NCBI RefSeq assembly: GCF_003334815.1
Contig: NZ_QOWO01000091.1
Source: Escherichia coli
GTDB taxonomy: Bacteria > Pseudomonadota > Gammaproteobacteria > Enterobacterales > Enterobacteriaceae
Length of the DNA: 1,859 nt
Reading direction: 5' to 3' (one strand)
Shown here: piece after piece, positions 202 through 702 of the stretch
How the letters are laid out: each line of letters starts with the position of its first letter
Numbering within the stretch: the stretch's first letter is position 1
The notes under the pieces: generated by a model
Database searches by the model: none
Told to the model about the DNA's origin: nothing
What the model saw: the letters and a program-made list of their open reading frames with translations, nothing else
Position numbers and translations under genes: made by a program

Positions 202-702
202 ATGTCTGTTGTTGCACCTGCTGTATACGTTGGAACCTGGCACAAATACAACTGTGGAAGCATCGCCGGACGCTGGTTTGACCTGACCACGTTTGATGAT
301 GAGCGCGACTTTTTCGCCGCCTGCCGTGCTCTTCACCAGGATGAAGCCGATCCTGAACTGATGTTTCAGGATTATGAGGGATTCCCGGGGAATATGGCCT
401 CTGAATGCCATATCAACTGGGCCTGGGTTGAAGGCTTCCGCCAGGCACGGGATGAAGGCTGCGAAGAGGCTTATCGTCTCTGGGTGGAGGATACCGGTGA
501 GACGGATTTTGACACCTTCCGCGATGCCTGGTGGGGCGAGGCTGACAGTGAGGAGGCTTTTGCGGTTGAGTTCGCCAGTGATACCGGCCTGCTGGCTGAC
601 GTGCCGGAGACGGTGGCGCTCTATTTTGACTATGAGGCGTATGCGCGGGATTTATTCCTGGACTCCTTCACCTTTATTGACGGTCATGTGTTCCGTCGGT
701 GA
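202..702 (+). CDS. ardA: Antirestriction protein ArdA (inhibitor of type I restriction-modification, DNA mimic)
   Basis: ATG at 202 to TGA at 700..702 gives 166 aa beginning [28 protein letters not shown] and ending FIDGHVFRR, which matches ArdA of ColIb-P9-type plasmids from memory, including its length. The protein is visibly acidic ([32 protein letters not shown]), as expected for a DNA mimic. GGAGG at 189..193 sits 8 nt upstream of the ATG. The track ORF 22..702 is the same frame extended back to a GTG; the extra 60 codons are low-complexity and not protein-like. Confidence 0.9.

Follow-up and report, generated by a model that had tools for sequence, protein, structure and literature searches.

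A stretch of 1,859 nucleotides (nt) of Escherichia coli DNA (contig NZ_QOWO01000091.1 of assembly GCF_003334815.1), called the window here, carries two genes on its plus strand, the antirestriction gene ardA and an open reading frame (ORF) of 144 amino acids (aa), with a G+C-rich spacer of 728 nt between them. This arrangement raises the question whether the window belongs to the leading region of a conjugative plasmid, on which side of it the origin of transfer (oriT) lies, and from which promoters its genes could be expressed upon entry into a new host. Our analysis leads us to read the window as a segment of the leading region of a conjugative plasmid of the IncI complex, of the ColIb-P9/R64/pESBL kind, whose genes would be driven by single-strand promoters (probability about 0.93). 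The features at the centre of this reading are:

1-182, minus strand: template (5') arm and apical domain of a putative class 2 single-strand promoter hairpin (homology, fold, covariation)
202-702, plus strand: ardA, encoding the anti-restriction protein ArdA, 166 aa, acidic (Pfam, PHROG and PDB matches, composition, plasmid annotation)
1054-1379, minus strand: ssi2 / Frpo2, a class 1 single-strand DNA promoter with a long imperfect hairpin (identity to ColIb-P9, fold, covariation)
1431-1859, plus strand: the 144-aa ORF, first gene downstream of ssi2 (annotated coding sequence in identical plasmids)

The window lies in the leading region of IncI plasmids

Over its whole length the window was 100% identical to three plasmids (L001, L002 and L003), which are typed as conjugative, IncI-gamma/K1, MOBP and MPF_I, and 99.8-99.9% identical to many further plasmids of Escherichia, Salmonella and Shigella. 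A common gene order was obtained for its surroundings. The left part, on the plus strand, consists of ssb, a DUF905 gene, a parB-like gene (which for one of the identical plasmids is missing from PLSDB's gene table), psiB, psiA, a hypothetical gene, ardA and the 144-aa ORF, and the right part of small ORFs including an Rpn-family gene, a DUF4942 gene, mobC on the minus strand, nikA and nikB. In L001-L003 the plus strand carries psiA, psiB and ssb at 0.9 to 4.9 kb to the left of the window. The leading-region gene order of ColIb-P9, R64 and their relatives matches that of the window plasmids (PMC3817090; PMC12672017).

A first-pass annotation, made from the sequence alone, had taken ardA as the sign of a plasmid leading region of the IncI1 type or a related one, had named psiB, psiA and ssb as genes to look for nearby, and had placed both genes on the plus strand. 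The order ssb-psiB-psiA-ardA-...-nikA-nikB, shared by conjugative IncI plasmids that are 100% identical to the window, bears out this placement, and the three neighbouring genes were all found on the left. The strand of both genes was likewise correct, with ardA at 202-702 and the 144-aa ORF starting from the ATG at 1431.

The identity of ArdA was confirmed at several levels. As read from the sequence, its frame on the plus strand starts with the ATG at 202 and comprises 166 codons up to the TGA at 700-702. The product matched Pfam PF07275 (E 2.7e-29, residues 8-161 corresponding to model positions 1-151 of 155), PHROG 2059 'anti-restriction protein' (E 6e-30) and the solved Tn916 ArdA/ORF18 chain 2w82_A (phmmer E 1.3e-6, residues 8-160), in which the best-conserved block is C-terminal (residues 128-160). 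It also matched PDB entries 7bto and 7btr, which contain ArdA with EcoR124I, while a search of NCBIfam with the product gave no match. With 36 Asp+Glu against 11 Lys+Arg, a net charge of -25 and an isoelectric point of 4.09, the protein has the strongly acidic composition that is expected of a DNA mimic, and the same coding sequence is annotated as 'antirestriction protein ArdA' in the three identical IncI plasmids. Both the gene name and the plasmid family given by the first-pass annotation were retained. The window encodes ArdA, a DNA-mimic protein that would inhibit type I restriction-modification enzymes; for the ArdA of ColIb-P9, which is of the same plasmid lineage as the window ardA, type I restriction inhibition is known from the literature.

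If the window came from a chromosomally integrated or degenerate element, ardA would be unlinked from a working oriT and leading-region logic would be inapplicable. Matches to chromosomes do exist: of the 12,555 places that match in complete E. coli genomes, 144 are chromosomal, and among the best 5,000 plasmid matches 137 are typed as non-mobilizable. However, plasmids account for 12,411 of the 12,555 places, or 99%, the chromosomal ones are likely to be mostly short repeat matches, and each of the three full-length 100% matches is a conjugative IncI plasmid in which oriT-nikAB is intact. Such a chromosomal or degenerate origin deserves practically no credence, and the window is treated in the following as part of a conjugative IncI plasmid.

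oriT lies to the right and the minus strand is transferred

To the right of the window, at a distance of about 3.9 kb, mobC, oriT, nikA and nikB were located. In L001, the positions of which are converted such that L001 25709/25708 equals window-equivalent 5709/5708, nikA is found at 25801 and nikB at 26144, the nikA start being at window-equivalent 5789-5801; both genes also lie to the right of the window in L002 and L003. Between mobC and nikA, a 17-bp inverted repeat (L001 25717-25733 / 25740-25756, 94% complementary) and an 8-bp inverted repeat (L001 25626-25633 / 25637-25644) were identified, and an oriT of the R64 type is recognised by 17-bp and 8-bp inverted repeats just upstream of nikA (PMC3817090).

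On the minus strand, CATCCTGT occupies L001 25708-25715, 8 nt from the 17-bp repeat, and ACATCCTG, then T, is found 8 nt past this repeat, so that the window's minus strand carries the IncI/IncP-type nick motif CATCCTG/T (nick at the slash). The nick sequence of RP4 (IncP) is ATCCTG/C. R64 is reportedly nicked 8 bp from the 17-bp repeat, within a sequence shared with IncP (work of Furuya and Komano, 1991). By this rule, nic presumably lies on the minus strand at L001 25709/25708, which places the end of the window about 3.85 kb and its start about 5.7 kb from the nick site. Corroboration of this position is indirect. The oriT-proximal end of the single-strand element ssi1 is 1,461 nt from the inferred nic in L001 and 1,459 nt in the ColIb-P9 record AJ238399, and that of ssi2 is 4,330 nt away in L001 and 4,353 nt in AJ238399; the agreement of these distances supports the inferred position.

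As the inverted repeat is located 5' of nic, the transferred strand leaves leftward, toward the window, and as the nick motif is on the minus strand, the minus strand is the transferred strand and the template of both genes. The published ColIb-P9 ssi/Frpo sequences, which are given in the sense of the transferred strand and numbered from oriT, also match the window's minus strand. The first-pass annotation had argued that, if the genes are expressed from the incoming strand, transcription runs toward oriT, oriT and nic lie to the right, and the second ORF enters the recipient before ardA. Each step of this argument holds: the repeats, CATCCTGT, nikA and nikB are all on the right with nic at about window-equivalent 5708, the plus-strand genes point toward them, and the 144-aa ORF, being closer to nic than ardA, enters first.

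Reasoning from the sequence alone was therefore right about strand, direction and the position of oriT; the window also holds the physical basis of this arrangement, namely two single-strand promoter hairpins. The picture is refined in two respects. ardA and the downstream 144-aa ORF are separate transcription units with different single-strand promoters, and only half of ardA's own promoter falls inside the window.

Two proposed single-strand promoters on the transferred strand

In the IncI1 plasmid pESBL, mating leads within 15 min to the induction of six operons, by up to about 500-fold, and each of these early operons is preceded by a large hairpin with a start site mapped by 5' rapid amplification of cDNA ends (5' RACE) (PMC12672017). 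The promoters were grouped into class 1 (ssi1-3), class 2 (5' of ardA and klcA) and class 3 (5' of M.EcoGIX) (PMC12672017).

The minus strand of window 1054-1379 was identical at 325 of 326 positions to Frpo2 of ColIb-P9 (AJ238399.1:4353-4678), with the Frpo/ssi reference sequences taken from Samuel et al. (2024; PMC11541004, supplementary file 4). Identity to other elements was 87% for Frpo3, 82% for Frpo1 and 74% for F ssiD (core only). The transferred strand of ssi2 folds with -102.9 kcal/mol (z-score -9.66), 13 kcal/mol stabler than the plus strand, with the tip stem at 1228-1266 and a GTCCGGGGG/CCCCTGGAC stem at 1272-1280 and 1206-1214. Among six copies from IncI, IncF and Serratia, 19 of 66 pairs showed compensatory changes. 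RNA-seq and 5' RACE have established that ssi1-3 act as early promoters in pESBL (PMC12672017). Judged by its sequence, the window would hold a class 1 promoter in full, with the 144-aa ORF under its control.

The left end of the window was assigned to class 2. The minus strand of window 1-182 was 86% identical to positions 21-201 of the candidate 'Frpo' 4' (PMC11541004, supplementary file 4), and window 1-194 was 93% identical to L001 7730-7923, which lies upstream of a klcA-type antirestriction gene on the same plasmid. The transferred strand of the whole element (L001 19740-20201) folds as a long stem-loop (z-score -6.1), and its hairpin (L001 19930-20175) is 12 kcal/mol stabler on the minus than on the plus strand. 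Stem segments within the window are at 146-160, 135-142 and about 118-129, whereas the 3' (non-template) arm is located 27-53 nt left of the window start (L001 19973-19947). Across five homologues, 91.7% of cells were paired compared to 36-42% with the partner slid, a value reached by 0 of 500 shuffles, although the shuffle figures are indicative only as the sequences are few and related; 16 of 58 pairs showed compensatory changes. Class 2 promoters with 5' RACE start sites are described 5' of ardA and klcA in pESBL (PMC12672017). The part of the element inside the window would correspond to the template arm and apical domain of the promoter that drives ardA. Taking the geometry of the hairpin as a guide, the ardA transcript might begin near window 150-156 and have a leader of about 46-52 nt.

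In CP057972.1, the annotation of the klcA-type gene on L001 (7931-8356) begins at 8054. An ATG with a good Shine-Dalgarno sequence is present at about 7931, in agreement with the 426-nt annotation in NZ_CP043828.1, and with this start the distance between class 2 hairpin and gene is about equal to that of ardA.

A strand bias in stability was confined to the promoter hairpins: the coding regions of ardA and the 144-aa ORF showed no minus-strand stability bias, or the opposite bias, which fits selection on the transferred strand. Strand-asymmetric fold stability could hence serve as a signature for finding single-strand promoters elsewhere. An Rfam search of the window at a permissive threshold returned no match, as single-strand DNA promoters are absent from Rfam.

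Some points weigh against assigning the genes to these hairpins. For class 1, the candidate boxes in six aligned copies are TTGTGG (1232-1227), a 16-nt spacer and TGGACT (1210-1205), with a poor -10 match, and TATATC (1222-1217), situated inside a 9-nt bulge of ssi2, has an unconvincing fit to the consensus; the boxes of this imperfect arrangement could not be placed confidently. For class 2, the candidates on the 3' arm, TTGCAT (-35-like) and TAAGAT (-10-like) with a 15-nt spacer, are also imperfect and their spacer is short. TAAGAT spans a conserved 3-nt bubble, and both hexamers are kept across the homologues. The proposed start of ardA is derived from the geometry of the hairpin, the exact nick position from the site reported for R64, and the plasmid origin of the window from its identity to plasmid records.

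The weak consensus match of the hairpin hexamers would suit ordinary double-strand promoters that become active after complementary-strand synthesis (zygotic induction, repressor escape), in which case the hairpins would be irrelevant to transcription; some basal expression in established cells would be compatible with the computed data as well. However, a scan for sigma-70-like promoters gave 0 sites on either strand of the duplex window, which weakly supports the view that no conventional promoter is present, and compensatory changes preserve the hairpins, whose folding favours the transferred strand. Early expression is tied to the hairpins by RNA-seq and 5' RACE in pESBL (PMC12672017) and by Frpo deletions in F, which abolish it (PMC9849209). 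In addition, the orientation of the element on the T-strand matters (PMC11541004), and induction is prolonged in uvrD recipients, in which single-stranded DNA persists (PMC12672017). We consider double-strand promoters highly improbable as the main source of ardA and ORF transcripts and favour the hairpins. That transcription depends on the single-stranded state is carried over to the window from the literature on pESBL, ColIb-P9 and F, and so are the mapped start sites; the biochemical action of ArdA is likewise taken from published work.

The elements are also repeated on the plasmid. When the window was compared by BLAST with its own plasmid, 731-1377 was found again upstream of ssb, 1053-1381 near oriT and 1-194 upstream of the klcA-type gene. 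Three to five dispersed leading-region copies would suit sites at which RNA polymerase primes complementary-strand DNA synthesis, and the repeats could then be chiefly ssi sites with mRNA as a by-product. Frpo (ssiD) was first isolated as a priming signal, and its RNA can prime DNA polymerase III in vitro (PMC7690428). On the other hand, each hairpin is followed directly by an operon in the same orientation that has a good Shine-Dalgarno sequence; in the window these sequences are:

189-194, plus strand: Shine-Dalgarno sequence of ardA, GGAGGA, 7 nt upstream of the ATG at 202 (read from the sequence)
1417-1422, plus strand: Shine-Dalgarno sequence of the 144-aa ORF, AAGGAG, 8 nt upstream of the ATG at 1431 (read from the sequence)

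The genes downstream are, moreover, those induced early and up to about 500-fold in pESBL (PMC12672017). Priming as the chief role seems to us rather unlikely, even if it carries some weight. Priming and transcription are compatible, and priming would be an additional function of the promoter hairpins instead of a true alternative to them.

A model for early expression of ardA and the 144-aa ORF

In the proposed model, the NikB relaxase would nick the window's minus strand at oriT, on the right. This strand would enter the recipient with its 5' end first, so that the window passes from right to left and the 144-aa ORF, ssi2, ardA and the ardA promoter arrive in this order. While single-stranded, the strand may fold into two long imperfect hairpins that mimic duplex promoters for the host sigma-70 RNA polymerase, and the polymerase would then move along the transferred strand to its 5' end, i.e. 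toward oriT. The class 2 hairpin (1-182 in the window) is predicted to drive ardA, and the class 1 hairpin ssi2/Frpo2 (1054-1379) to drive the 144-aa ORF and the genes after it. The acidic DNA-mimic ArdA dimer could bind the host's type I restriction-modification enzymes before the complementary strand is made and unmodified duplex targets arise. Synthesis of that strand would also melt the hairpins and turn the promoters off, leaving a transient burst of expression.

The spacer downstream of ardA and the hairpin module

Apart from the promoters, the spacer between the two genes contains further structures:

709-726, folding on both strands: G+C-rich hairpin CCCCCGC-TCCG-GCGGGGG, perfect over 7 bp, without a T tract, 6 nt past the ardA stop
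875-1053, minus strand: conserved hairpin module of about 180 nt with several G+C-rich hairpins, part of a long 'R' repeat (repeat comparison)

A second hairpin was observed downstream of ardA at about 731-762. Together with the hairpin at 709-726 it is a candidate for the 3' end or a stabiliser of the ardA mRNA; alternatively, the hairpin at 709-726 is possibly a structure of the transferred strand.

The module at 875-1053 adjoins the class 1 promoter on its upstream side (3' on the transferred strand). A nearly identical copy is found upstream of ssi3 on the same plasmid (L001 about 9185-9385), and copies of 92-96% identity are found upstream of the ssb Frpo in IncF plasmids (L004 4001-4209), whereas for the class 1 promoter hairpins the identity between IncI and IncF is only about 74%. 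Between these plasmid groups, the module is more conserved than the promoters it adjoins. In more distant copies the hairpins are preserved by changes in both arms, as judged by eye from alignment A4. The module may be a functional part of the promoter unit, for instance an insulator or terminator that shields the downstream hairpin from read-through, or it could be a priming site.

A minus-strand ORF at 842-1141, recorded as a 94-aa 'hypothetical protein' (WP_021013251.1, annotated at 842-1126) in one RefSeq record, is very likely no gene. It is rich in Ala, Arg and Gly, overlaps ssi2 and the module upstream of it, and its reading is split over two frames in the copy upstream of ssi3.

Group II introns (ltrA and Rfam Intron_gpII) were observed to separate ssb from the class 1 promoter next to it (ssi3 / Frpo2-type). 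One IncI plasmid has two copies in tandem, while a second IncI plasmid and an IncF ST131 plasmid have one each (L001 10435-14996 and 2257-3981; L003 95-1996; L004 5264-7165). This suggests a preferred insertion site of group II introns just downstream of a single-strand promoter.

The 144-aa ORF

The 144-aa ORF extends 6 nt beyond the window, its last codon and its stop being outside. Many records give it the label 'PndC', and one calls it 'ygcA'. The label 'PndC' was rejected, since the true pnd hok/sok locus, recognised by Rfam sok (131.7 bits) and a Hok/Gef coding sequence, is 18 kb away at L001 39174-39481; the ORF itself is without a hok partner.

Searches with the protein sequence gave no match in Pfam, NCBIfam or PDB, and the matches to PHROG 1987 and 23089 are to families of unknown function. 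The family is large: at E <= 0.001, 1,939 cluster representatives were obtained, from bacteria, archaea and viruses. Certain Tyr, His, Asp, Gly and Arg residues are nearly invariant, in the arrangement Y-x-H-x-D-G ... G-H ... Y-G-R-D. An AlphaFold2 model was obtained with a predicted local distance difference test score (pLDDT) of 96.3; a fold search of PDB with this model gave no structural relative, and its neighbours in the AlphaFold database (AFDB) are all uncharacterised. Apparently the same family is found at rank 23, labelled PndC, among the leading-region gene families tabulated by Samuel et al. (PMC11541004). As a tentative proposal, possible but doubtful in its two parts together, the ORF would be a founding member of a large uncharacterised enzyme-like family and would act within minutes of entry as an anti-defence or establishment factor, and the module at 875-1053 would at the same time be functional in the promoter unit.

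Comparison with known systems

A functional parallel is Ocr (gene 0.3) of phage T7, whose mode of action is well established. Like ArdA, it is an early acidic DNA mimic that blocks type I restriction-modification enzymes at entry. In contrast to ArdA, to which it has no relation in sequence or fold, it is expressed from double-stranded phage DNA by the host polymerase at early promoters.

ArdA of Tn916 (ORF18, 2w82) belongs to the same Pfam family as the window protein, and both are strongly acidic DNA mimics; the two share the conserved C-terminal stretch, in an alignment against ALGEVPASLQNYIDYQAYGRDL. The overall similarity is low (E 1.3e-6), and the carriers differ, a Gram-positive conjugative transposon in one case and a Gram-negative plasmid in the other. 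Tn916 ardA is not known to use a promoter of the Frpo type.

At the level of the promoters, Frpo1 (ssiD) and Frpo2 of F (Masai and Arai, 1997; Couturier et al., 2023) form the same long imperfect hairpin on the transferred strand as ssi2. The A/T-rich tip stem (GCAAAA-TTTTGC / GCAAAAA-TTTTG) and the GTCCGGGGG/CCCCTGGAC stem are shared, the pairs are kept by compensatory change, and the elements of both plasmids are located upstream of early leading-region operons. Identity is, however, only about 74% over a core of about 90 nt, the flanking arms differ, and the genes downstream are ygeA/ygeB or ssb in F and the 144-aa ORF in the window.

The closest counterpart is the leading region found in ColIb-P9, R64 and pESBL (Bates et al., 1999; Althorpe et al., 1999; PMC12672017). 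The order ssb-psiB-psiA-ardA-...-oriT-nikAB is the same, all genes are likewise templated by the transferred strand, and a class 2 hairpin is present 5' of ardA and klcA. Between ColIb-P9 and the matching plasmid, ssi2 is identical at 325 of 326 positions, ssi1 by 98.8% and ssi3 by 99.4%, and within the window there is essentially no difference. Differences concern the replicon type (IncI-gamma/K1 for the window plasmids, IncI1 for ColIb-P9, R64 and pESBL) and, outside the window, the group II introns that one window-identical plasmid carries between ssi3 and ssb, unlike ColIb-P9, R64 and pESBL. Everything central to the finding has already been published, and current understanding is unchanged by the analysis of the window. 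By means of the leading region, resistance plasmids that spread by conjugation disarm a new host ahead of the conversion of their DNA to the double-stranded form, for which ardA of IncI1 plasmids is the textbook case, and the system of the window is the same as that of ColIb-P9, R64 and pESBL, not merely similar to it.
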